Assembly (NCBI GenBank): GCA_034432055.1
Contig: DAOUCT010000023.1
Coordinates: 74,126 to 138,125, forward strand
DNA from: Dehalococcoidia bacterium
Lineage (GTDB): Bacteria; Chloroflexota; Dehalococcoidia; GIF9; UBA5629
Direction of reading: 5' to 3'
DNA: 64,000 bases
In this document: positions 2,375 through 26,275 of the stretch, piece by piece
Layout of the letters: every line of letters starts with the position of its first letter
How positions within the stretch are numbered: position 1 is the first letter of the stretch
Made by a program: the position numbers and the translations under genes
Notes under the pieces: generated by a model
Databases searched by the model: none
What the model saw: only the letters and a program-made list of their open reading frames with translations
Told to the model about the DNA's origin: nothing

Positions 2375-3703
2375 ATGTTTGATTTTCTGACCCAAAAGTT
2401 TTTTCAGGTCTTTAAGAGCCTTGGCAGTAAAGGAAAGCTGAGCGAGAAGGATATAGACGAGGCGCTGAGGCAAATACGTCTGGCTCTATTGGAAGCAGAT
2501 GTTAACTTCAGAGTGGTCAAAGACTTTTTGTCAAAGGTCAGAGAACGAGCCCTGGGTGTTAATGTACTGGACAGTTTAACCCCGGTTCAACAAATTGTGA
2601 AGATTGTTAATGAGGAGCTTACTAATATTTTAGGAGGGGCACCCAGTCATCTGGTAGCGAGCAGGCGACCGCCTTCTATAATAATGCTTGTGGGGTTGCA
2701 GGGATGTGGAAAGACTACCACGGCAGCCAAAATAGCCTTGCACCTTAAGAACTCCGGGCAACGTCCTCTTCTAGTGGCTGCAGATATCCGCCGTCCTGCT
2801 GCTATCGAACAATTATTGCTGCTCGGTAGGCAACTTGGCATCCCGGTTCATGCTGATAATAGTCAAGCGGCGGTTCCAGCTATATGTAAGCAAGCACTAA
2901 GATCGGCTGAGCAGATAGGTGCTAACTGGGTGGTCATTGATACTCAAGGACGTCTTCACATTGATGATGTTATGATGTTGGAATTAGTCCAGCTCAAGGC
3001 GGAGCTTCAACCTTCGGAGGTCTTATTGGTGGTTGATGCTATGAGTGGTCAGGACGCGCTCAATATTGCTGAGGAGTTCAATAGACGGCTGGGACTAACT
3101 GGACTGGTACTAACAAAAATGGACGGTGATGCTCGTGGTGGCGCAGCGCTTTCCATCAAGTTCATTACCGGGTTGCCAATTAAATTCATAGGTACCGGTG
3201 AGAGAGCCGACGCCATAGAGATATTTCACCCCGACCGTCTGGCGTCCCGTATCTTGGGCATGGGTGACGTACTAACTCTGATTGAAAAAGCTGAGAAATT
3301 GCTTGCCGGCGAGCAATTGCGGCAGGCAGAAAAAAAGCTACGGGCTGCAAAATTCGATCTCGAGGATTTGCTCTGGCAACTACGCCAGCTGAAAAAGATG
3401 GGGACGATAGCACAGATTGCCGAGTTGTTACCCGGTTTCTCAAATATATCCTCCAAAGTCCTTCGAGGCGACGAAGAGGACCAGATGCGAAGATTCGAAG
3501 CCATTATTCTTTCAATGACACCCGAGGAACGACGTAATCCAGATATAATAAACGGCAGTAGACGTCGCCGTATTGCCCAAGGCAGCGGGACAACTCCTCG
3601 CGATGTCAATCAACTCCTTAATCAGTACTATCAGGCGCGGAAGTTGACCATGATGGCAGCAAAAGGCAAAATGCCTTACGGGACCCTCGGCATTCCGAAG
3701 TAG
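2375..3703 (+). CDS. ffh: Signal recognition particle protein Ffh
   Basis: 442 aa. It has the SRP54 N domain, the GTPase P-loop GLQGCGKTTT, and the methionine-rich M domain at the C-terminus. Confidence 0.9.
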   Translation: MFDFLTQKFFQVFKSLGSKGKLSEKDIDEALRQIRLALLEADVNFRVVKDFLSKVRERALGVNVLDSLTPVQQIVKIVNEELTNILGGAPSHLVASRRPPSIIMLVGLQGCGKTTTAAKIALHLKNSGQRPLLVAADIRRPAAIEQLLLLGRQLGIPVHADNSQAAVPAICKQALRSAEQIGANWVVIDTQGRLHIDDVMMLELVQLKAELQPSEVLLVVDAMSGQDALNIAEEFNRRLGLTGLVLTKMDGDARGGAALSIKFITGLPIKFIGTGERADAIEIFHPDRLASRILGMGDVLTLIEKAEKLLAGEQLRQAEKKLRAAKFDLEDLLWQLRQLKKMGTIAQIAELLPGFSNISSKVLRGDEEDQMRRFEAIILSMTPEERRNPDIINGSRRRRIAQGSGTTPRDVNQLLNQYYQARKLTMMAAKGKMPYGTLGIPK

Positions 3704-3715
3704 TAAAGTAGCTAG

Positions 3716-4339
3716 TTACTTAACGGTCTTGGTCAATCCTGTTATGGTTATTTGACGGTTTTTGATCTCGACACTGGTTACCGTCAGTGGTAAGTCAGCT
3801 AGCTTAATATCGACTACGAAGTTCAATAGTTGTTCTATTGTATTGTTTAATGACTCAGGCAACGGGAGTTTACCGAGGTCTAGGTCGCTAACCACTACTC
3901 TGGGTTTATCATTTACTATTGCTACTCGTCCGATCAAGCCTGTTTTAGCGTTAATCCCCGGTACTTCCAGCTCGGCATAAATAAGGAATTCGCCATCATT
4001 ACTGTTACGCAGGTTGACTATCATCTTTTCGATGAGTGGTTTGCCTGTTGATTTAGCTTTAGCTAGCTCTTTGCTTATCTTCGCGTTTATCTCCTTTTCT
4101 GTGACCTGTAGGTTAACTTCTTTCTTTTGCCCGGCGCTGACCGCATCCTCAATTTCAATCTCGAAGGAAGCGATTTTCTCTTCGAAGCTTAATGCTGCCT
4201 TTTCGTCCGGGAGGATGGGTGTTACTTTTGTCTGGATCTGCGGTGTCAGCGAGTAGAGATAGTACCCAGCCAGTAAGATAATGAGGACAAGTATCCCGAT
4301 TAAACCTAAAGCTACGACTAAACCTCTTAATAAGCTCAT
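3716..4339 (-). CDS. Hypothetical membrane-anchored protein: N-terminal transmembrane helix followed by a charged, coiled-coil-like region
   Basis: 207 aa. The N-terminus LLRGLVVALGLIGILVLIILLAGYY is a single transmembrane helix. I recognise no family. It is convergent with ffh across a 12-nt gap. Confidence 0.45.
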   Translation of the reverse strand: MSLLRGLVVALGLIGILVLIILLAGYYLYSLTPQIQTKVTPILPDEKAALSFEEKIASFEIEIEDAVSAGQKKEVNLQVTEKEINAKISKELAKAKSTGKPLIEKMIVNLRNSNDGEFLIYAELEVPGINAKTGLIGRVAIVNDKPRVVVSDLDLGKLPLPESLNNTIEQLLNFVVDIKLADLPLTVTSVEIKNRQITITGLTKTVK

Positions 4340-4368
4340 ATCGTGTCTCCCTGAAAAATTAAGCTAGT

Positions 4369-5931
4369 TTACTCTAGATAATCCTTCAGCCTACGGCTGC
4401 GCGTGGGATGGCGCAATTTACGCAAAGCCTTTGCCTCTATCTGACGGATTCGTTCACGGGTGACATTGAATTCTTTGCCCACCTCTTCCAGAGTTCGAGC
4501 GCGCCCGTCCTCGAGCCCGAATCTCAGGGCGATAACCCTTCTTTCCCTTTCAGTAAGCTCAGAGAGGATCTTATTCAGTTGTGCTTTTAACAGTTCTTGT
4601 GATGCAGCATCGGCTGGTGGTAAGGTAGCACGATCCTCGATGAAGTCGCCGAGGTGACTGTCTTCATCCTCACCTATCGGCATTTCCAGAGATATCGGCA
4701 TTTGGGACAACTTCATAATCTCTCTTACTCTTTCCGAAGATATTTCCATTCCCTTACCGATTTCTTCGTAGCTGGGCTCGCGCCCAAATTCCTGAGCAAG
4801 GCGCCTGTTTACTTTTAGCAGCCTGTTTATCGTTTCCACCATGTGAACCGGGATACGGATGGTTCGTGCCTGGTCGGCTATGGCGCGTGTGATAGCCTGT
4901 CTGATCCACCAGGTAGCATAGGTACTGAATTTATAGCCTTTTCTATATTCGAATTTTTCCACAGCCCTGACCAGTCCTATATTCCCCTCCTGTATCAGAT
5001 CCAGGAGAGGCATTCCATGACCGACATATTTCTTCGCCACACTGACCACGAGACGCAGGTTTGCTTCGGTGAGGTGTCTTTCTGCCCTTCTTGCTTCCCT
5101 TTTAGTACGGTCAAAGTGATGTTTAAGTTCATAATTCAAGGACTGAAGGTTAGAGTAGAATTCGGTGTCAACAGGTTCTGCGACCAAAGCCTTCAGTTGC
5201 CCCCAAGAGGTCTTATTAGCCAGAAGTTCCAGCACCTGCGGAGGCAGGAGCCTGCTATCTATTGAAAAATCTATAAGGCTTTGTTCAACTTCTGCTTTAT
5301 CTTTGCTGAGCTTTGTGGCAATGCTTTCAACAATGACCGGGTCTATCACTCCATCAATAGCTGCTCGGAGCTTTGGGTCGGTAAGGCTCTTTGCGAAGCT
5401 GTCGTGACGCTTTATGCCCAGCTGTTTAGCCAGTGCATTTACTACTGGCTGCGCTGCCAGTAAGTGGCGTAACAGATAGATTACCATATCAGCAGGCGAA
5501 GGATATTCCTGGTGCTGTTGAAGATAAAGCTGCTCAATTTTTTCTAGATATTTAGCCTCCTCAATTTTGCTGGCTAGCACCTTTTCATCTTCTGCAGTGA
5601 GCAAGGCAACCTTGCCGATTTCATGCAGGTACATTCGGACCGGGTCATCGATTGCTTCGTGCTCGACATGTTCTACTTCGGTATCTAAAAGGGTCTTATC
5701 TTCCTTTTCCAGTCTAGCTATCCACTCGCTATCGGGCTCTTCATTAACCTCTTCTGCTCCCCACGGGATCTGCGTTGCAGAATCGACTCTGCTTACAAGA
5801 TCCTGTTCGTTGTTGTCCAACTCAGGAGCCCTGTCTGTGGTGGGTTTTCGGGTGCTGGCAGAATTTTCGTCTCTATTGCCCCTGGAGGGGAAGAACGATA
5901 GTAGTTCTTCTTCGCGGCTCAACTTTGTCAT
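4369..5931 (-). CDS. rpoD: RNA polymerase primary sigma factor
   Basis: 520 aa. Region 2 ([32 protein letters not shown]) and region 4 are conserved. It overlaps the dnaG stop by 4 nt. Confidence 0.9.
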
Positions 5932-7784
5932 ACACTGCTCCTTCCGGTCAGTTGCTGTCGTAAGTAGCTTTGTCTCTTGAAGATTTCTTTTAGTTGTTTG
6001 CTAATTTCTACCCCTTGCTCTTCGAGTCTCGTTAGTTGTGCGGTTATGCCACCGGTCTCAGCCTCTGCAGCCAGCAGCTCCTGTTTTTTTATCTCCAGGT
6101 TTCTTAGTCTTTTTTCGTGAAGGCGGATGATGCAGTCTTGGAGAACGCTACGCCGTAGGGCTTCGCTCTGATGGATGATGTCTGGTATCTCCTTGGACAG
6201 AAGACCTTCCATATATTCTCGAAGGGGAGCGTCAAGTTCTTTTTTGAGGTCGGCAAGCTCAGTGCCTCGTTGCCATCTAAGGAAAAGCTCTCTGTTTTCA
6301 CTTTGTTCGAAGCATTCAGGTGAAAGCTCAGTGGTTTCTGTTTGGAGTTCGGGATATTGGAATAGCAACGCTAAGCAGTACTGCTCGACAGGGCTGGAAA
6401 GAGGCGGGACTACAGCTATCTGCCCTGTTGCTGCCGCTTTAGTTGGTGCCTTTCGTAGTGTTCTTGTTTTTCTTATCGTGTCTTCCAGGACACGTGGGTC
6501 GATTTTCAAATGGTGAGCAAGCCTTTCTACGTAGTGAGCGTGCCTTACGGGGTCTTTTATTTCCAAGAGTAACGGCGTGAGTTTTTCCACCGCCAGTGAC
6601 TTTTCTGTGGCACTTTCAAGGTTGACTTTGGTAACGATAGCGTCAATGATGAATTCAATGATTGGTCTCGCGCTTTCTATCAGCTGATGCCATAGGTCTG
6701 GGTCTTCTTTTATCACCTCGTCAGGGTCTTTGTCTTGGGGAAGCAGCATAGCTTTCACTTCTGCTTTGTATGCGTCTTCATACTTGACCCAGCCATAAAT
6801 TGATGGCAAGAAGGGAATTACTTTGTCCACCAGTTCCCCGCCTCTAAAGATAGCTTCTGTTCCGGCTGTATCTGCATCTAGGGCGAAGACCAGGTTTCGA
6901 GTCAGGTTTTTGAGTGTGAGTAGTTGTTTCTCGGTAATAGAGGTACCCATAGAGGCGACTACGTTTTGCCATCCATACTGGTGGGCTATTATTACATCCA
7001 TGTAGCCTTCTACAATGATGGCTTGATCGCTGTGGCGGATTGCATTCTTTGCTTGATCGATGCCATAAAGAATGCTACTTTTGTCAAAGACTGCGGTTTG
7101 TGGCGAATTGAGATATTTAGGTGGGGAATCATCCAATGCTCTGGCGCCAAAGCCAACTAACTTACCACCGGCATCCCGTATCGGGAAAATGAGACGGTTG
7201 CGGAATCTGTCATAAGTGTGTTTGTTTTCTTGTTCGACAAGTAAACCTGCGAGCAGCAGGTCGGTTTCATTGTAGCCTGTTTCTATCAGGTGATTTTTTA
7301 ATGTTTCCCACCCTTCGGGGGCAAAGCCTAGCTGGAAGTTTTTGATGCTCTCGATCGACAGCCCCCTTTGTGTAAGGTAGCGTCTCGCTGTTTCTCCTGC
7401 ACCGGTATTCAATAGCAGGTTGTGGTAATAATTAGCGGCAGCTTCGTTGATCTTGAGGATTTTTTCCTCTTCTCTTACGTCTTGCCTGCTGTAGCTGGAT
7501 GGCACAGTCAGGTTGATGCCTGCTTTATCAGCAAGGAGCTTAAGTGCCTGGCTAAAATCGACCCCTTCTCTCCTCATTATGAAAGAGAAGATATCGCCAC
7601 CTGTATTACAGCTTCCGAAGCAGTGCCAGCTCTGTCTGTCCGGGAATACGAAGAAAGAAGGGTTTTTTTCAGTGTGGAAGGGACATAGCGCACGATAGTT
7701 CCTCCCTGATTTCTGCAAAGCTACATATGCAGATACAATCTGGACAATATCTAGTCTTTGTTTTATTTCGTCAATAACACTCAT
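5928..7784 (-). CDS. dnaG: DNA primase
   Basis: 618 aa with an N-terminal zinc ribbon ([11 protein letters not shown]...CFGC) and a TOPRIM domain. Confidence 0.85.
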
Positions 7785-7827
7785 ACCCTAGTCCTAGGAA
7801 CTATTTTACATAATATCCACAATAAAT

Positions 7828-8868
7828 TCAACAGCTGGAGATTGCTTCTGCGATATGGAGAGCGTATTGGTCTGTCATGCCGGCGATGTAGTCAGTCACT
7901 CTTCTCTCGGCAGGGTCGCCCTGCATTTTATATTCTTTTGGTAGCTGGTTCTCGTGTTTTAGAAAATAGGAAAACAGGAGCTGGATAGTCCTGCGTGCTC
8001 TTTTTGCCTCCTCGTCGGAGATGGTTGAGTTATAGACTCTTTCGAAGAGGAATTCGCGAAGGCAATTGGTCACTTCGAGGATAGTGGTGGACATACCGAT
8101 GCTCGGCTTTTGGATTCCGGGTTGGGTCATTTTGGTTAACGAATAGCTAATGATATCGGTGACCAGGGTGTTAATGCGTTGGGAGAGGGTTTCGCCCAAC
8201 ACTTTTATTACGGACGGAGGAAGGTCGCTTTCGGTGATGACCCCTGCCCGGATAGCGTCGGTGATGTCGTGGTTGACATAAGCAACCACATCTGCGATTT
8301 TTACTACCTGGCCCTCGAGGGTGCCCACCTCTGTCCATCCTTCCCCAAGTATCTCAATATTACCTTTTGAGTGGTTCAGGATCCCGTCTCGTACTTCCCA
8401 AGTCAGATTCAATCCTTGTCCGTCTCTCTCCAGGAGATCGACTACTCTCAAGCTTTGCTCGTTGTGCTTGAAGCCGAACGGGCAAAGTTCGTTCAGTACT
8501 TGTTCGCCGATATGGCCGAAGGGGGTGTGTCCCAGATCGTGTCCCAGGGCAATGGCTTCTGTCAAGTCCTCGTTAAGGTTCAAGGCTCTGGCGATGGTGC
8601 GGGCGATCTGGGAGACCTCTAAGGTATGTGTCAGGCGTGTAACATAATGGTCGCCTAAAGGCATGATGAATACCTGGGTCTTATGTTTAAGGCGTCGGAA
8701 TGCATTGGAGTATATAATACGGTCGCGGTCTCGCTGAAAAGCCGTCCTTATGGGGCATGGTTCTTCCCACCTGAGTCTACCGCGGCTAAATCTACTTTGT
8801 GTTGCAAAGGGGGAGAGATGCCTCTCGGACTCTTCTATTTGCTGCCGAATATTTAACTCTGTCATCAA
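7828..8868 (-). CDS. dgt: dGTP triphosphohydrolase-like HD-domain phosphohydrolase
   Basis: 346 aa. It has an HD motif (HTLEVSQIAR...GHDLGHTPFGH) typical of the dGTPase family. Confidence 0.7.
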   Translation of the reverse strand: MMTELNIRQQIEESERHLSPFATQSRFSRGRLRWEEPCPIRTAFQRDRDRIIYSNAFRRLKHKTQVFIMPLGDHYVTRLTHTLEVSQIARTIARALNLNEDLTEAIALGHDLGHTPFGHIGEQVLNELCPFGFKHNEQSLRVVDLLERDGQGLNLTWEVRDGILNHSKGNIEILGEGWTEVGTLEGQVVKIADVVAYVNHDITDAIRAGVITESDLPPSVIKVLGETLSQRINTLVTDIISYSLTKMTQPGIQKPSIGMSTTILEVTNCLREFLFERVYNSTISDEEAKRARRTIQLLFSYFLKHENQLPKEYKMQGDPAERRVTDYIAGMTDQYALHIAEAISSC

Positions 8869-19608: not shown

Positions 19609-20813
19609 ATTAATGCTGACCTTATGCTTGGCAATACGTCAATACTTATCAACGGTGCGCTTGATACCATCTTACAGGCAGGTGTTTCTTTAATCGAAGT
19701 ATTCTTGGAACTGGGTGTGCCCTTTGTCTTGTTTTTTATGTATTCTTGCCATAACTTGTCGAGTCCAGCCTGGTCAAAGCCGTAAATTTGTAACAAGGCT
19801 TCATCACAAGAATTACCTTCTTTCAGTAAATACAGGAGTTGTAATATTTTATCCTTGCCATAGTTCTGGATAAGAAATTCCACTAGGCTCTGGCTCTGGG
19901 CATAAGAGAGATAAGCGTCCTCTGGTTTCGCCGAGAAGGGGCTTGAAAGGCTACGCACAGAGAACAGTCTTCCTTGTGAGACGGCTTTCCTTAAGAGCGC
20001 TTCAAGGTAGGCATCACTTTCTCCTTCGGCGTACATAGCCAGACCTTCGTTTAGCCAGACAGGCAGGCTAGCACCGTAGGGACTAAAGGTCACCTGGTGT
20101 ATTACCATGTGGCCGAGTTCATGTGCTACAGCTCTTTTCCCCCAGTTCAGCTGGCTGGCGGAAACTCCGATGGCGATGGTACCGAATTCAGGGAAAGCTA
20201 CTCCGCCGGTCCACTCGCGCGGGAAAATCATCGCCGCTCTTAGGTCTTGTGCATTAGCGTAAATGAAGATGCTGACCGGTCTTTCCAGGCGTGTCCCAGT
20301 ATCTTGATAAAGTCTGTTTAACGCCTGTTCACAAGCAGTGAGAAGTCCACTGGCGAAGGACTCGCTCCCTTTGTACCAGAAGAGAGTGACCTGATCCATG
20401 GTCAATTTCTGCCAGGAATACCGCAGGTCCTGGAACTGGAATGTATTACTATTTGTGACCAATTTGTGTCCGCTCTGGTCCTCGATAGTCCACCAGTAGC
20501 GGATGGTAGCCCCTACAGGAAGGCTGGCTTTTCTCATGTCCCAGAGCCACTGAGTTTCCACCTTGGGTGATGGTACAAAATCCGGCCAGGCCTCGCTGAT
20601 TACATAGGCGTAGTTCATCCTCTCAGTCTGATAAAGGAGCCGGATTCTGGTGATGTTGCTCTGGCTCTGAACTTTCACCTTGAATACTATTGCGGAAGGA
20701 AAGAGCACCTCTGTGCTTGAGTCGAGCAAAGTTATATTTTCCTGGGCTCGAGTAACCGCAGGTATAAGGAGCGAGAGGGCAAGTATAACAGTCAGGAAAA
20801 TATATTTACTCAC
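19605..20813 (-). CDS. Secreted peptidase-MA-like zinc metalloprotease (HEXXH)
   Basis: 402 aa. It has a signal peptide and the motif AHELGHMVIHQ with a downstream NEGLAMYAE glutamate. It overlaps radC by 4 nt and prfB by 8 nt. Confidence 0.55.
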   Translation of the reverse strand: MSKYIFLTVILALSLLIPAVTRAQENITLLDSSTEVLFPSAIVFKVKVQSQSNITRIRLLYQTERMNYAYVISEAWPDFVPSPKVETQWLWDMRKASLPVGATIRYWWTIEDQSGHKLVTNSNTFQFQDLRYSWQKLTMDQVTLFWYKGSESFASGLLTACEQALNRLYQDTGTRLERPVSIFIYANAQDLRAAMIFPREWTGGVAFPEFGTIAIGVSASQLNWGKRAVAHELGHMVIHQVTFSPYGASLPVWLNEGLAMYAEGESDAYLEALLRKAVSQGRLFSVRSLSSPFSAKPEDAYLSYAQSQSLVEFLIQNYGKDKILQLLYLLKEGNSCDEALLQIYGFDQAGLDKLWQEYIKNKTKGTPSSKNTSIKETPACKMVSSAPLISIDVLPSIRSALI

Positions 20814-21913
20814 CTTTTCTTCCCAGCATATGGTGTAAGTATGCCGTAATGAATTCGTCCAATTCTCCGTTCAGCACAGAGTTGGCATCGCTGCTTTCAA
20901 AGTCGGTGCGATGGTCTTTTACCATTTTGTAAGGGTGCAAGACGTAGCTTCGGATCTGGTTGCCCCATCCAGCTTCAATCCGTCCGCCTTTCAGTTTAGC
21001 CCTTTCTGCCTCTCTTTTTGCCTGTTCAAGCTGGAAAAGACGCGCATAAAGCACTTTTAAGGCGTTTTCTTTATTCTGGAACTGGGAGCGCTCACTCTGG
21101 CAGGTGACTACTATTCCCGTAGGCAGGTGGGTTATTCTTACAGCGCTGCTTGTTTTCTGCATATGCTGCCCACCCGGTCCACTGGAGCGGAAGGTCTCGA
21201 TTTTTAGGTCATCCGGGTTGATCTTAACGTCTATTTCCCTTTCAACCATAGGCAGGACTTCAACTAGTACAAATGAGGTATGTCGCGCATGGTCGGCATC
21301 AAATGGCGAGATGCGGACAAGCCGATGGACTCCGTGTTCGGATTTGAGATAACCGTAAGCATAATCACCTTTTACTTCTATAGTGGCACTTTTTATCCCT
21401 GCTTCGTCACCTGGTGATATGTCCAATATCTCAGTCTGATAATTATGTTGCTCTGCCCATCTTGTGTACATTCGCAGTAGCATCTCCGCCCAGTCTTGCG
21501 ATTCAGTGCCACCTGCTCCTGCGTGTATACTCAGGATAGCGCTTCTCTGGTCATGTTCACCGTTAAGAAGTAGTCTTGTTTCCAGCTCTTTTAATTCGGA
21601 TGCCAGCTTCTCTGCTTCTCGTCTAATATCATCTTGTATACTAAGATCATTTTCTTCAACAGCGAGTTTTGTCATTTCAAGGAGGTCATTGTTCGTTTTT
21701 TCCATGCTACGCCAAGTATCAACTACTTCTTTGAGCGTAGCTAGCTGGCGCATGACGGACTGGGCTTTGGTTGGGTCAAGCCAAAAATCGGGCTGTGCTG
21801 CTTCGGTCTCTAATCTGGCGATTTCTTTTTCCTTACCGACTATGTCAAAGATGCACCATTATATCAGTTATTTTTTGCCGCATTGCTTCCAGTTTTTCTT
21901 TTATCTCTTGCAT
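20806..21913 (-). CDS. prfB: Peptide chain release factor 2, made by a programmed +1 ribosomal frameshift
   Basis: Frame 0 reads MQEIKEKLEAMRQKITDIMVHL and then hits TGA. The +1 frame continues as DIVGKEKEIARLETEAAQPDFW... through SPF and GGQ motifs to give about 368 aa. The shift site CTT TGA C is at 21850..21844. The ORF track reports only the long downstream frame. Confidence 0.85.
21844..21850 (-). other. prfB +1 frameshift site CTT-TGA-C
   Basis: The heptamer is identical to the canonical RF2 autoregulatory shift site. A weak Shine-Dalgarno-like GGTG lies 4 nt upstream. Confidence 0.8.
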
Positions 21914-21960
21914 GGCTAGTTTGAGTTCTCCTGACTTTAGTTAAGTGTGATGCTAAACGG

Positions 21961-22871: not shown

Positions 22872-23651
22872 ATGGAAACGAAGGACATTGATTACTTGGT
22901 TGACAAGGTCGCCGCTTTGATTCACGAGGCGAGGCGTGTAGTGGTGTTTACCGGGGCTGGTATAAGTACAGAGTCAGGCATACCTGATTTTCGCAGTCCC
23001 GGTGGAATTTGGAGTCGGTTCGATCCTGATGATTTCACCATCCAGAAATTCCTCCATAGTCGCGAAGTGCGGGAGATGCAGTGGAAGCTTTTGGCTGAAG
23101 GTGGTCTTCTAAAGGATGTGCAGCCAAACCCCGCCCATTATGCCATTGCTGAGCTAGAAAAAGCGGGTAAGCTGACCTGCGTCATAACTCAAAATGTGGA
23201 CAATTTGCATCAAAAGGCAGGGAATTCTCCGGAAAAAGTGTTTGAGTTGCATGGCAACATGAGATGGGTGAAGTGTCTGAGTTGTAATGTTCGTTTTCCT
23301 GTCGAGGAAGTGTTGCAAAGAGTCAAATACGAACCTGCTCCAGATTGTATTCTGTGTCATGGTATCCTGAAGCCTGATGCTGTGTTTTTTGGTGAAGCTT
23401 TACCTCAGGCGGTTTTACAAGCTGCAATCTCTCACGCTCGCAATTGTGACCTGTTTATTGTTATCGGTTCAACTCTGATTGTTTATCCTGCAGCTTATGT
23501 GCCAATGTATGCTGTAGAGGCTGGTGCCAGGCTGGTGATTATAAACTTGACCTCGACACCTATGGATTCTTACGCTACTGTGCTCATCAGAGGTAAGGCT
23601 GGTGAAGTGATGCCAAGGGTGATAGAAAAAGTGAAGCAGAGGCTATCCTGA
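22872..23651 (+). CDS. cobB: NAD-dependent protein deacylase, Sir2 family
   Basis: 259 aa with GAGISTESGIPDFRSPGGIW and a Zn ribbon CLSC...CILC. Confidence 0.85.
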   Translation: METKDIDYLVDKVAALIHEARRVVVFTGAGISTESGIPDFRSPGGIWSRFDPDDFTIQKFLHSREVREMQWKLLAEGGLLKDVQPNPAHYAIAELEKAGKLTCVITQNVDNLHQKAGNSPEKVFELHGNMRWVKCLSCNVRFPVEEVLQRVKYEPAPDCILCHGILKPDAVFFGEALPQAVLQAAISHARNCDLFIVIGSTLIVYPAAYVPMYAVEAGARLVIINLTSTPMDSYATVLIRGKAGEVMPRVIEKVKQRLS

Positions 23652-23730
23652 CAGCTGGTCGGTTGTTTATATTTCAGTGGTTATTAGACTGAGGTTGGCA
23701 GTATTAAATGAAGAACCGGGGGAGTAAATT

Positions 23731-24834
23731 ATGAAAAAGTTGATCATCTTTGGTCTAGCAATTGCTGTGGTGAGTGTAGGTTGTGTGCCCGTTGTTGTGC
23801 CACCAGCCAATAAGCCGCCAAGTGCTATCATAGACTCGGTATCACCTACCGAAGTGGTAGTGGGTGGACGGGTGACCTTTGTTGGACATGGGACAGACGA
23901 AGACGGTAATGTGGTAGCTTATGGCTGGAAGTCGAGTATTGATGGTGAGCTAAGTAAGTCGGCAAGTTTCACCACCTCATCGTTGTCGCAGGGGACTCAT
24001 ACTGTCTGGTTTAAGGTCCAGGACGATAAAGGGGCGTGGTCAGCAGAGGTTCCGGTGGTGGTTATGGTGGTCCCGCAGGGTGTCTTTAAGCCAAGTATAG
24101 AGTCGTTCAATGCTGAACCGTCGATTATTTCCGAGGGTGGGGTCTCGACACTAATGTGGAGTGTATCAGGGGCTAAGGCGGTGAGCATTCAACCGGAGAT
24201 AGGTAATGTTGCCGCTAGCGGCTCCAGAGCGGTCACACCGAAGAAAACCACGACGTATATGCTATTGGCAAGTAACGAAGCAGGGACAGTAAGCACTACT
24301 TTGCAAGTAGTAGTAGTTTCTACTGAGCAGATACGCAAGGTGGAGCTATATTCCATCACCACTGAGGAAGGGCAGGTAAGACAGGATGGATATGTGGGGG
24401 AAGAGCCGCAGGTAGGCGATATGAAGAACGGTACATCAATGCAGGCATTCTTAAGTTTTGACATTTCGATGATCCCGCAGGGGTCCACTATCAAATCAGC
24501 ATATCTTGACCTGACTGCATCATCTGTATTTGGGGAGCCATTTAGAAACTTGGGGCTGCTGCATGTCTACGAGTATCAGTACACTGTGCTTCGTAGCAAG
24601 GACTTTGTTGTTGGACCTGCCGGGACTGCACCGCTGTACAGTTTCAAGTTTTTTACCGACGAGCCGGTCACGTCCAGTCTTCTGGTCTCGGCTATTCAGG
24701 AGCGAGTTAAAGAAGGGAGCCGGCGCTTTCAGTTACGTTTCCAGTTTGATAAGCCGTATTTCTATAACAATCAGGGTGACTATGTGACATTCTGGAAGGG
24801 CAAGACAAAGCTGATTATCGAGTACCAGGAATAA
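23731..24834 (+). CDS. Lipoprotein with a PKD/Ig-like domain, one ~80-aa 'TTTY' repeat module and a C-terminal beta-rich domain
   Basis: 367 aa with a signal peptide and a Cys at the lipobox position (VSVGC). Its repeat module matches those in the next gene. Confidence 0.5.
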   Translation: MKKLIIFGLAIAVVSVGCVPVVVPPANKPPSAIIDSVSPTEVVVGGRVTFVGHGTDEDGNVVAYGWKSSIDGELSKSASFTTSSLSQGTHTVWFKVQDDKGAWSAEVPVVVMVVPQGVFKPSIESFNAEPSIISEGGVSTLMWSVSGAKAVSIQPEIGNVAASGSRAVTPKKTTTYMLLASNEAGTVSTTLQVVVVSTEQIRKVELYSITTEEGQVRQDGYVGEEPQVGDMKNGTSMQAFLSFDISMIPQGSTIKSAYLDLTASSVFGEPFRNLGLLHVYEYQYTVLRSKDFVVGPAGTAPLYSFKFFTDEPVTSSLLVSAIQERVKEGSRRFQLRFQFDKPYFYNNQGDYVTFWKGKTKLIIEYQE

Positions 24835-24868
24835 GATGCCCCTTTAACAGGACTTTAGGAGGTGCAGC

Positions 24869-26275
24869 ATGAAAAGGTTGATGTTTGTGATCGGACTGTT
24901 GGCGGTGTTGTTTTTTGTCAGCTGCGTACCCGGTGGTCCAACTATAGTCTTGCAGCCGCCGGTGATAAACTCGTTTGATGCCAACCCGCAAAGGATATCT
25001 GCTGGCGAATCGGCGACTCTTTCTTGGGAGGTATCGGGGGCAACAAAGGTGGGTATAGAGCCTGATGTCGGGAGTGTGGCGCTAGCGGGGAGGAGGATGG
25101 TATCTCCCGCTTCGACGACTACTTATACTCTGACTGCAGTTAACGAGGCAGGTACAGTGACTGCTACTGTCCAAGTGATCGTTGTCGAAGCACCAGCCCC
25201 ACCTCCGTCACCGCCGACGCCTGCCGTGCTACCCACAATCAACCTTTTCGCAGCGAATCCGGGTAGCATTACAGCAGGCAGTACATCGACGCTGAGCTGG
25301 AGTGTGTCCAATGCTACCGGGGTGACCATAAGTGGTGTGGGTAGCGTAGGGTTATCAGGCAGCACTACAGTTTCGCCAGTGACTACGACCACTTATACTC
25401 TTACGGCGACCAATGCGGCTGGGGGCGTGACGGCAACTACTCAGGTTATAGTATCAGCAGCGCCACCACCTGCCGCCGATACAACGCCGCCATCAGTGCC
25501 AGGTCTACTATCACCAGCCTCCGGGGCGGTGTTACCCCAGAAAACAGCACCCTGGCAATTTTCTTGGTCAGCCTCGTCTGATGCGGAAAGCGGGATAAAA
25601 CAGTACCAAATCCAGGTGTATCGTGCCGGGCAGCCGCCGTTCATTGAAGACTATACCAGTGGTACCAGCTATTCTAAAGTGGTTGAAGTCGCATATGGCT
25701 ACTTGTCCAACTGGCGCTGGAGGGTTAGAGCGCAGAACAACGTCGGGCTATGGAGTGCATGGTCAGCGGAGGGGAATTTCAGTGTGCAACCCAGGGTAGC
25801 TTATGATTTCATCGAAAATGCACCGACAGCCTATTGGTGGAGTACCCCTGGTGAACAATTACCTTTTCCTGGTGCTACTAATGATAACAGGGGCTTTGCC
25901 TGCTATCGTTACGATATCAAGCTCAATGATGGGCTAACTTATACCAGGGTGCTGGAGACACACCCGGAGTGGGTTGATGATGGCTATATAACAGGTAAGT
26001 ATGCCAATGTGTATATACCGCCTGGAGCTAAGCTCAAGGTGAAGGTGGGTTTTATCAGCGATGGTACAGCCGGGAAGGTTCGTTTCAGAGCGCATAAACT
26101 TAGTGCAGCGGCTGTTTGGTCCCAGATAGTAGGTTATGCGGATGGGGTTAAAGAGGCTGAGGTTGACCTTAGCGTCTATGCTGGACAGACGATTGATTTT
26201 TGTATCGGTGTAAATGCGCAGGGAAGCTCCGGTCAGGACTGGGCAGCCTGGGTCGAAGCCAGGATAGTCTATTGA
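24869..26275 (+). CDS. Paralogous lipoprotein: two 'TTTY' Ig-like repeat modules, Pro/Thr linkers, an FN3-like domain and a C-terminal beta-rich domain
   Basis: 468 aa with signal peptide and lipobox (FVSC). The two repeats are ...ISAGESATLSWEVSGA...TTTYTLTAVNEAGTVTATVQVIV and ...ITAGSTSTLSWSVSNA...TTTYTLTATNAAGGVTATTQVIV. Confidence 0.5.
   Translation: MKRLMFVIGLLAVLFFVSCVPGGPTIVLQPPVINSFDANPQRISAGESATLSWEVSGATKVGIEPDVGSVALAGRRMVSPASTTTYTLTAVNEAGTVTATVQVIVVEAPAPPPSPPTPAVLPTINLFAANPGSITAGSTSTLSWSVSNATGVTISGVGSVGLSGSTTVSPVTTTTYTLTATNAAGGVTATTQVIVSAAPPPAADTTPPSVPGLLSPASGAVLPQKTAPWQFSWSASSDAESGIKQYQIQVYRAGQPPFIEDYTSGTSYSKVVEVAYGYLSNWRWRVRAQNNVGLWSAWSAEGNFSVQPRVAYDFIENAPTAYWWSTPGEQLPFPGATNDNRGFACYRYDIKLNDGLTYTRVLETHPEWVDDGYITGKYANVYIPPGAKLKVKVGFISDGTAGKVRFRAHKLSAAAVWSQIVGYADGVKEAEVDLSVYAGQTIDFCIGVNAQGSSGQDWAAWVEARIVY

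Follow-up and report, generated by a model that had tools for sequence, protein, structure and literature searches.

Dehalococcoidia, a mostly uncultured group, abound in sediments, aquifers and deep lakes. Their envelope is of an unusual, wall-less kind, and its surface proteins are, to our knowledge, almost entirely uncharacterised. In a 64,000-nucleotide stretch of DNA from a Dehalococcoidia bacterium (the window), two adjacent genes, here called A and B, encode putative lipoproteins. The first-pass annotation read them as a small inserted surface-protein cassette of two paralogues with a common Ig-like module and related C-terminal domains. This raises the question of whether the pair is a recent arrival or a resident of its locus, and of what its products may do at the cell surface.

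Gene layout and lipoprotein signals

Both ORFs were found exactly where the annotation had placed them, side by side on the plus strand (to which all coordinates below refer), and the flanks are housekeeping genes as proposed: a SIR2-family gene on one side and purS on the other. Gene A (23731..24834) encodes a protein of 367 amino acids and gene B (24869..26275) one of 468. In the domain HMM map, protein A has a signal with lipobox, a PKD domain, one Ig-like module with a characteristic 'TTTY' motif and a DNRLRE/CBM96-like head; protein B has a signal with lipobox, two such modules, an FN3-like domain and an NPCBM/CBM51-like head.

Sequence inspection identified a Shine-Dalgarno-like GGGGGAG (23718..23724) six nucleotides upstream of the start codon of gene A, and a Shine-Dalgarno sequence AGGAGG (24857..24862) at the same distance from the start codon of gene B, within the 34-nucleotide spacer between the two genes. 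No plus-strand terminator-like site was found in this spacer, and the short, terminator-free spacer together with the strong Shine-Dalgarno sequence suggests that A and B are co-transcribed. Promoter and terminator scans gave counts not above those of shuffled sequence, and scanning the window for Rfam families and tRNA genes gave no matches.

Lipoproteins were recognised by a K/R-containing n-region and a hydrophobic h-region with the lipobox [LVI][ASTVI][GAS]-C at its end, and both proteins have all of these: the K/R-rich n-region leads into the h-region and then to the lipobox cysteine in protein A (MKKLIIFGLAIAVVSVGC, 23731..23784, ending in VSVGC18, with Cys18 the predicted lipidation site) as well as in protein B (MKRLMFVIGLLAVLFFVSC, 24869..24925, ending in FFVSC19). 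The cysteine is invariant in 71 orthologues of A and in 56 orthologues of B, and 67 and 53 of these, respectively, have a PROSITE-style lipobox pattern. The annotation of both products as lipoproteins is thus well founded, and it is likely that A and B are lipidated and exposed at the surface.

Modules, PKD domain and linkers

Pairwise alignment, BLASTP and profile-profile comparison all recover the three proposed module copies, one in protein A (aa 119-197, 24085..24321) and two in protein B (aa 29-107, 24953..25189, and aa 119-197, 25223..25459). The module is about 79 amino acids long, and any two copies are identical in 38-48 of 79-80 alignment columns (about 49-60%). Profile-profile comparisons with hhalign gave E-values of about 5e-35 to 5e-41 (4.6e-41 for the module of A against the first module of B), and BLASTP matched the modules of A and B with an E-value of 5e-23. 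The consensus pattern given in the first-pass annotation is essentially correct, except that copy 3 departs from it: it has L-F-A in place of S-F-[DN] and its 'I-x-P' lacks the proline. At the DNA level the copies are only about 55% identical, and all orthologues share the order of the modules; the duplication of the module is therefore ancient.

As the annotation had stated, the module belongs to no named family: neither Pfam nor NCBIfam has a dedicated model. The closest likeness is to the immunoglobulin I-set (PF07679), to whose F-G strand motif the last ~25 residues of the module (TTTYxLxAxNxxGxxxxxxxVxV) can be aligned; the same residues align weakly with titin Ig domains in the PDB. However, a single module reaches only 22.0 bits (cutoff 23.7), the alignment is limited to the C-terminal third of the module and to profile positions 64-90, and proteins with many copies exceed the I-set cutoff only through summed partial matches. 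A search of PDB chain sequences with the module profile gave nothing significant. The F-G motif, the period of about 80 amino acids and the occurrence in long tandem arrays, as also formed by Big, PKD and CARDB repeats, are indirect evidence that the module adopts an Ig-like fold. A relationship to PKD was considered and rejected: the module of A and the second module of B match the PKD profile with hhalign probabilities of 0.4-0.6% (0.6% for the comparison with the PKD domain of protein A itself), and the 98.6% obtained for the first module of B is an artefact, as one of the aligned sequences (P0018) has a PKD domain in that slot.

Searches of protein sequences recovered the module (E <= 1e-3) from the representatives of at least 21,772 clusters; a single protein may have as many as 47 copies, and the fusion partners are as varied as CAP, CARDB, PKD, zinc ribbons and TIR. 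The clusters of multi-copy proteins are named only 'hypothetical protein', and no paper on the motif TTYTLTA was found in the literature. The module is thus a ubiquitous, generic and probably Ig-like repeat.

The remainder of the stalks is made of other small domains. The suspected PKD domain is present in protein A (aa 37-111, 23839..24063), where it matches Pfam PF00801 above the gathering threshold (E 7.2e-7, 29.5 bits, cutoff 23.5). The proposed Pro/Thr-rich linkers correspond to Pro/Thr/Ala-rich stretches in protein B, at residues 108-118 (APAPPPSPPTP in the translation, 25190..25222) and 198-212. Alignment of B orthologues delimits a further domain of about 100 amino acids (aa 206-305, 25484..25783), for which an FN3-like or Ig-like fold is plausible: Pfam gives no fn3 (PF00041) match at E <= 1 and only a sub-threshold match to Ig_Rha78A_N (14.3 bits), and a comparison with PDB sequences gave no match. 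In distant B orthologues this slot is occupied by a third module or by a CARDB domain.

The two C-terminal heads

The heads of A (aa 198-367, 24322..24831) and B (aa 306-468, 25784..26272) are both beta-rich, as expected from the first reading of the sequence, and about 165 amino acids long; AlphaFold2 models have pLDDT values of 94.9 and 96.7, respectively. They are, however, not related to each other, contrary to what had been proposed: their Smith-Waterman score is 23, with a mean of 28.7 for shuffled sequences (z = -1.2), the hhalign probability is 0.3%, BLASTP likewise speaks against kinship, and the best structural matches differ too. With a generic module and unrelated C-termini, most of what the first-pass annotation had named as counting against its reading was found; its reading is partly rescued by the neighbourhood of gene A, which is specifically conserved, and by a second pairing of the two head types on another scaffold (see below).

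The model of the A head has the same fold as the solved members of the DNRLRE/CBM96 group (PDB 7vbo, 8wab; 14-18% identity). Of these, 8wab is a chondroitin-sulfate-binding DNRLRE CBM, and 7vbo is, we assume, the alginate-binding founder of CBM96. At the sequence level, the core 'AFLSFDIS..IP..A.I.SA.L.L' of the A head matches positions 21-55 of the DNRLRE profile NF033679, but the score is below the curated cutoff (22.5 bits, cutoff 34) and the alignment spans just 35 residues; the match to the CBM96 model PF24517 is weaker (12.2 bits, cutoff 26; E 0.16). All 17 heads of the A type match NF033679 (best E 1.1e-8), and searches of PDB sequences with the single sequence and the family profile gave nothing significant. 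Residues F43, D47, I48 and S49 are invariant in heads of this type. Judged by its model, the A head is a divergent member of the DNRLRE/CBM96 type. The first descriptions of DNRLRE domains came from archaeal S-layer proteins and disaggregatase, and the domains are also present in polysaccharide lyases (PMC9971899); the A head differs in that it is carried by a lipoprotein stalk and is not joined to a lyase or other enzyme.

The B head, a predicted jelly-roll, is modelled with the fold of solved CBM51/NPCBM members (PDB 2vmi, 2vng, 2ygl, 7js4, 7jrm, 8pvs; 11-15% identity). Its sequence similarity to the CBM51/NPCBM (NEW2) family is weak, covers the C-terminal half (positions 63-136 of 137 in the profile PF08305) and remains below the gathering score (13.2 bits, cutoff 23.9); in its family, 13/36 members match PF08305 (best E 1.2e-4). 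Neither the single sequence nor the family profile found anything significant among PDB sequences, and no CBM51 chain, and a Foldseek search of viral structures returned only generic jelly-roll matches with low TM scores in tail fibres. We regard the B head, on the basis of its model, as a divergent NPCBM/CBM51-type module, set apart from CBM51 by strongly conserved motifs of its own (T-H-P-x-W, G-x-I-x-G-x-Y and Q-D-W-A-A-W), in which T59, H60, P61, W63, D152, W153 and W156 are invariant. At least 44 species genomes in GTDB, archaeal ones among them, encode domains with THPxW and QDWAAW. A further difference lies in the carriers. CBM51 modules are appended to glycoside hydrolases and bind galactose or blood-group glycans, but here the carriers are never glycoside hydrolases: they are lipoproteins, or proteins of 1000-1700 amino acids with CARDB and Peptidase_C25 domains in archaea, Caldisericota and Dehalococcoidia, with the B-type head at the N-terminus. 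No glycoside hydrolase domain was found in A, B and the six large carrier proteins scanned.

The link to Peptidase_C25 could mean that A and B are adhesins for proteins or peptides, or else recognition modules associated with a protease; the heads would then bind proteins and not glycans, in the manner of the gingipain 'cleaved adhesin' domain, the MAM domain or the TGF-beta prodomain. We consider this improbable: for both heads, the best structural matches and the sole sequence-level matches are carbohydrate-binding families, and no protease gene lies beside A or B.

The locus and possible functions of the pair

The gene order SIR2-A-B-purS-purC-purB, with B standing for the second gene, is found at L001, L004-L008, L010, L011 and L050-L052, in divergent Dehalococcoidia, with A orthologues down to 48-57% identity; full-length orthologues of A number about 80 among metagenomic proteins of Dehalococcoidia and Chloroflexi. 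Compared with L007, A and B have diverged slightly faster (67-70% identity) than their housekeeping neighbours (76-84%). Conserved synteny across divergent Dehalococcoidia contradicts an inserted cassette, and synteny and a divergence comparable to that of the neighbours rule out recent insertion or horizontal transfer. A recently inserted adhesin cassette of two paralogues with related C-terminal domains would fit the adjacent, co-oriented genes with their common module and signal type, and also the slightly raised G+C content in the linker-rich stretch of gene B (0.57 at 25000-25499), but it is hardly credible given synteny kept down to 48% identity, the ancient module duplication and the unrelated heads.

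Gene A is stable at the locus, whereas the second gene is variable: it is an accessory slot, and from one lineage to the next its head and middle domain have been replaced, duplicated or lost. L001 and L004 have other heads, L050 retains a remnant and in L052 the gene is absent. A-type and B-type heads are paired again at L029, a locus of another Chloroflexota genome, there on a transmembrane scaffold and beside phage-tail-like baseplate genes. It is conceivable, if rather speculative, that the SIR2...purS locus is a diversifying, head-swapping lipoprotein array, in which a constant leader and Ig-like stalk carry exchangeable heads (DNRLRE-like, the new CBM51-like family, a third head type, CARDB) and in which the DNRLRE-type and NPCBM-like heads act as a functional pair, bound either to one another or to two epitopes on a single target. 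Such an array would diversify surface recognition, and the B-type head would be a new family of binding modules common to bacteria and archaea.

For the pair in the window, we give about even chances to A and B being non-catalytic surface lipoproteins with glycan-binding heads held on Ig-like stalks; a surface or binding role, as proposed in the first-pass annotation, is plausible. Pfam and further domain searches found no catalytic domain in A or B. Each protein would be exported and anchored to lipid through its N-terminal lipobox cysteine; beta-sandwich spacers of about 80-100 amino acids (PKD, 'TTTY' module, FN3-like) with Pro-rich linkers would keep the jelly-roll head of about 165 amino acids off the membrane. 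By analogy with the DNRLRE/CBM96 and NPCBM/CBM51 families the heads may bind glycans, either of the cell's own envelope or S-layer or of external polysaccharides, and thus serve adhesion or substrate capture; gene A is the fixed resident of the locus and the second gene its accessory. Several observations count against glycan binding: both heads are below the curated family thresholds, their profiles match no PDB sequences, the genes adjacent to the pair are housekeeping genes and encode no glycoside hydrolase, lyase or sugar transporter, and the B-type head is carried in other lineages by CARDB/peptidase C25 proteins instead of CAZymes. SusE and SusF of Bacteroidota are alike in design, with a lipid anchor, one or more Ig-like spacers, non-catalytic CBM-like beta-sandwiches and surface exposure; we know of no detectable sequence homology to A or B. 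Unlike SusE/SusF, A and B belong to another phylum with another envelope and are located among housekeeping genes, away from any SusC/SusD transporter or genes for polysaccharide utilisation.

Cultured Dehalococcoidia have an S-layer and no peptidoglycan, and A and B could instead be structural parts of the envelope that span the distance from the membrane to the proteinaceous S-layer of a wall-less cell, their heads docking on S-layer proteins or glycans; they would then tether or space the S-layer and not bind substrates from outside. The lipid anchor and the stalk-plus-head build would suit this role, as would the retention of gene A throughout the clade at one and the same housekeeping locus and the first discovery of DNRLRE domains in archaeal S-layer proteins (PMC9971899). 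A dispensable gene B with an interchangeable head (L050, L052, L001, L004) would however be unusual for a fixed structural tether and no S-layer gene lies nearby, which makes this role unlikely. A literature search on Dehalococcoidia, lipoproteins, S-layer and PKD found nothing relevant.

A and B are thus a fairly ordinary but uncharacterised pair, with common Ig-like spacers and two unrelated CBM-like heads, and general concepts are unchanged by this result. What is gained is a testable model for two 'hypothetical proteins', as lipid-anchored stalks with two distinct CBM-like heads, and the definition of two sequence families that Pfam and NCBIfam thresholds miss: the CBM51-like THPxW/QDWAAW domain and a divergent DNRLRE branch. 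If the heads do not bind glycans, the gain is better annotation only; if they do, the heads would indicate the means by which these organisms adhere to polysaccharide matrices or sense them.

Gene layout and conservation of the locus

The lipoprotein genes A (23731..24834, 367 aa) and B (24869..26275, 468 aa) are adjacent, co-oriented ORFs on the plus strand, exactly where the first-pass annotation had placed them, and each has a good Shine-Dalgarno sequence 6 nt before its ATG (plus-strand GGGGGAG at 23718-23724 for A and AGGAGG at 24857-24862 for B). The spacer between the genes is 34 nt and contains no plus-strand terminator-like site; judged from this spacing, A and B are likely co-transcribed. 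Both proteins start with a lipoprotein-type signal (..AVVSVGC18 in A, ..LFFVSC19 in B), as had been claimed: the lipobox cysteine never varies across 71 aligned orthologues of A and 56 of B, and 67 and 53 of these, respectively, match a PROSITE-style lipobox pattern.

Upstream of A lies a SIR2-family gene (22872..23651) and downstream of B, on the opposite strand, lie purS, purC and purB (Pfam labels from orthologous loci). The gene pair had been suspected to be an inserted cassette, but the order SIR2 - A - second gene - purS - purC - purB is retained in divergent relatives, even where the A orthologue is only 48-57% identical; at locus L007 of one relative, A and B share 67-70% identity with their counterparts in the window, and the adjoining housekeeping genes 76-84%. 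Thus, the locus is resident and not recently inserted. Full-length orthologues of A and B were found only in Dehalococcoidia/Chloroflexi metagenome assemblies, named, where at all, 'hypothetical protein' or 'PKD domain-containing protein'; the closest GTDB species-representative genome is a Dehalococcoidia MAG (88% identity for B). In several relatives, the gap that separates SIR2 from the A orthologue has a called ORF of 46 aa (L001 5787-5927, L002 799-939, L004 5785-5925, L051 6783-6923); in the window, this gap is only 80 nt (23652-23730) and the ORF is therefore absent.

Elsewhere in the window, the minus-strand release factor 2 ORF (20806..21753, 315 aa) looks N-terminally short, and a CTTTGAC motif lies upstream of it on the same strand (21844-21850, region 21753-21919), an arrangement that would fit the classical programmed +1 frameshift of prfB. 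Scans of the whole 64-kb window (1-64000) detected neither tRNA genes nor any Rfam family that reached its gathering score.

A common Ig-like module and other spacer domains

A and B share three homologous copies of the ~79-aa 'TTTY' module (A 119-197, B 29-107 and B 119-197), as first described: any two copies are identical at 38-48 of 79-80 columns, all three agree at 34, and the similarity is significant both by BLASTP (A versus B, E 5e-23) and in profile-profile comparisons (E 5e-35 to 5e-41). At the DNA level, the copies are only 53-56% identical, and the module order is identical in all orthologues, which dates the duplication as ancient.

The first reading had not assigned the module to a named family, and indeed no Pfam or NCBIfam model names it: its similarity to the I-set Ig domain (22.0 bits, just short of the cutoff of 23.7) is confined to the last ~25 residues, which match the F-G strand motif, and among PDB sequences its profile finds only weak titin Ig matches. 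When a profile of the three copies was searched against 1.84 billion representative proteins, 21,772 matched at E <= 1e-3, of which 10,443 reached E <= 1e-10; the highest copy number was 47, in a protein of 4,314 aa. Partners in sampled proteins are unrelated (e.g. CAP, PKD, zinc ribbons), and homology searches with A and B also returned module-bearing CARDB proteins and a TIR protein. The module is thus a generic spacer repeat, unnamed but very common, with a putative Ig-like fold.

The PKD-like domain noted earlier is a PKD domain in A (37-111, above the Pfam threshold). B has an unassigned ~100-aa domain of putative FN3/Ig-like character (206-305); more distant orthologues have a CARDB domain in its place, or a third copy of the module. 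One protein match (P0018, 468 aa) is a hybrid that joins a PKD domain like that of A to a module, an FN3-like domain and an NPCBM-like head like that of B, suggesting that domains have been shuffled between A and B; the hhalign comparison of the first B module with PKD is contaminated by this protein.

Two unrelated C-terminal heads

The C-terminal ~165-aa domains, the heads, had been thought related. They are not: Smith-Waterman alignment gives z = -1.2 against shuffles and hhalign a probability of 0.3%. Together with the conserved synteny, this refutes the initial idea of an inserted cassette with related C-terminal domains. AF2 models built from orthologue alignments have high confidence (A 198-367, pLDDT 96.7; B 306-468, pLDDT 94.9). 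All A-type heads (17/17) match NF033679 DNRLRE_dom (best E 1.1e-8), the A head of the window with only 22.5 bits (cutoff 34), and its match to CBM96 (PF24517) is weak. The first DNRLRE domains to be noted were those of disaggregatase and S-layer proteins of archaea; polysaccharide lyases also contain them (PMC9971899).

B-type heads have their own sharply conserved motifs (THPxW, G.I.G.Y, QDWAAW); their commonest weak Pfam match is NPCBM (PF08305; 13/36 family members, best E 1.2e-4; window B head, E 0.094), presumably the Pfam entry that corresponds to CBM51. Both heads are too divergent for curated family thresholds, and sequence searches of PDB chains with a profile of each head family found no match.

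Head swapping in the second slot and heads outside the clade

Domain HMMs were mapped onto all retrieved loci. Gene A is constant (PKD, module, DNRLRE-like head) and the second slot, between A and purS, is variable: it has an NPCBM-like head in the window, L006-L008, L010, L011 and L014, CARDB with a DNRLRE-like head in L001, an apparently frameshifted A-like paralogue in L051 and no gene in L052. In L004 (7230-8915) and L005 (5407-7092), the second-slot lipoprotein has an FN3-like domain and ends in a third head of ~170 aa (residues ~392-562), with no Pfam family and no match to either head HMM. L010 has four such lipoprotein genes consecutively. In L050 (JGI Ga0209721_1000002; A orthologue 72% identical), gene B is a decayed ~400-bp remnant (8131-8538) between A and purS, still reading '..QPPVANSFDAAP*'; it encodes '..KQPPVANSFDAAP' and then a stop, indicating recent loss of the second gene.

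Outside the clade, the B-type head follows directly on the signal peptide in 1000-1700-aa proteins of Thermoproteota/Nitrososphaerota archaea (L022, L023), Caldisericota (L030, L042) and other Dehalococcoidia (L024, L026, L027, L031, L036, L038, L041); Pfam scans of six (L022, L023, L024, L026, L030, L042) found CARDB repeats and/or a C-terminal Peptidase_C25. The family of this head (THPxW/QDWAAW) thus spans bacteria and archaea, without a Pfam model. Both head types recur in adjacent paralogues of Chloroflexota MAG180 (L029, JBFMCB010000051.1; 4984-6507 and 6783-8252, region 2423-8252), whose N-terminal Ig-like regions are nearly identical; both also have a hydrophobic segment, probably a transmembrane helix, and a Pro/Thr linker, and they end in a B-type (NPCBM-like) head on one and an A-type (DNRLRE-like) head on the other. 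The pair is directly downstream of Baseplate_J and Tail_P2_I genes and this may therefore be a phage-tail-like or contractile-injection locus, in which the heads would serve as modules for distal binding.

In the model with the best support, A and B are surface proteins without catalytic function: a lipid anchor would hold them at the surface and the Ig-like stalk would present the CBM-like head. The heads may bind glycans, as their folds match those of CBM96/DNRLRE and CBM51 and their sequences do so weakly. That they are instead protein-binding adhesins is a live alternative, as the jelly-roll fold is also used for protein binding and the B-type head is associated with C25 peptidases; a second rival is that A and B are structural S-layer tethers. 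Lipoproteins with an Ig-like stalk and a CBM-like head, as in our preferred model, are a familiar design and the parts of A and B are known kinds of domain; most interesting are the head swapping in the second slot and the fact that both head types are found paired more than once.
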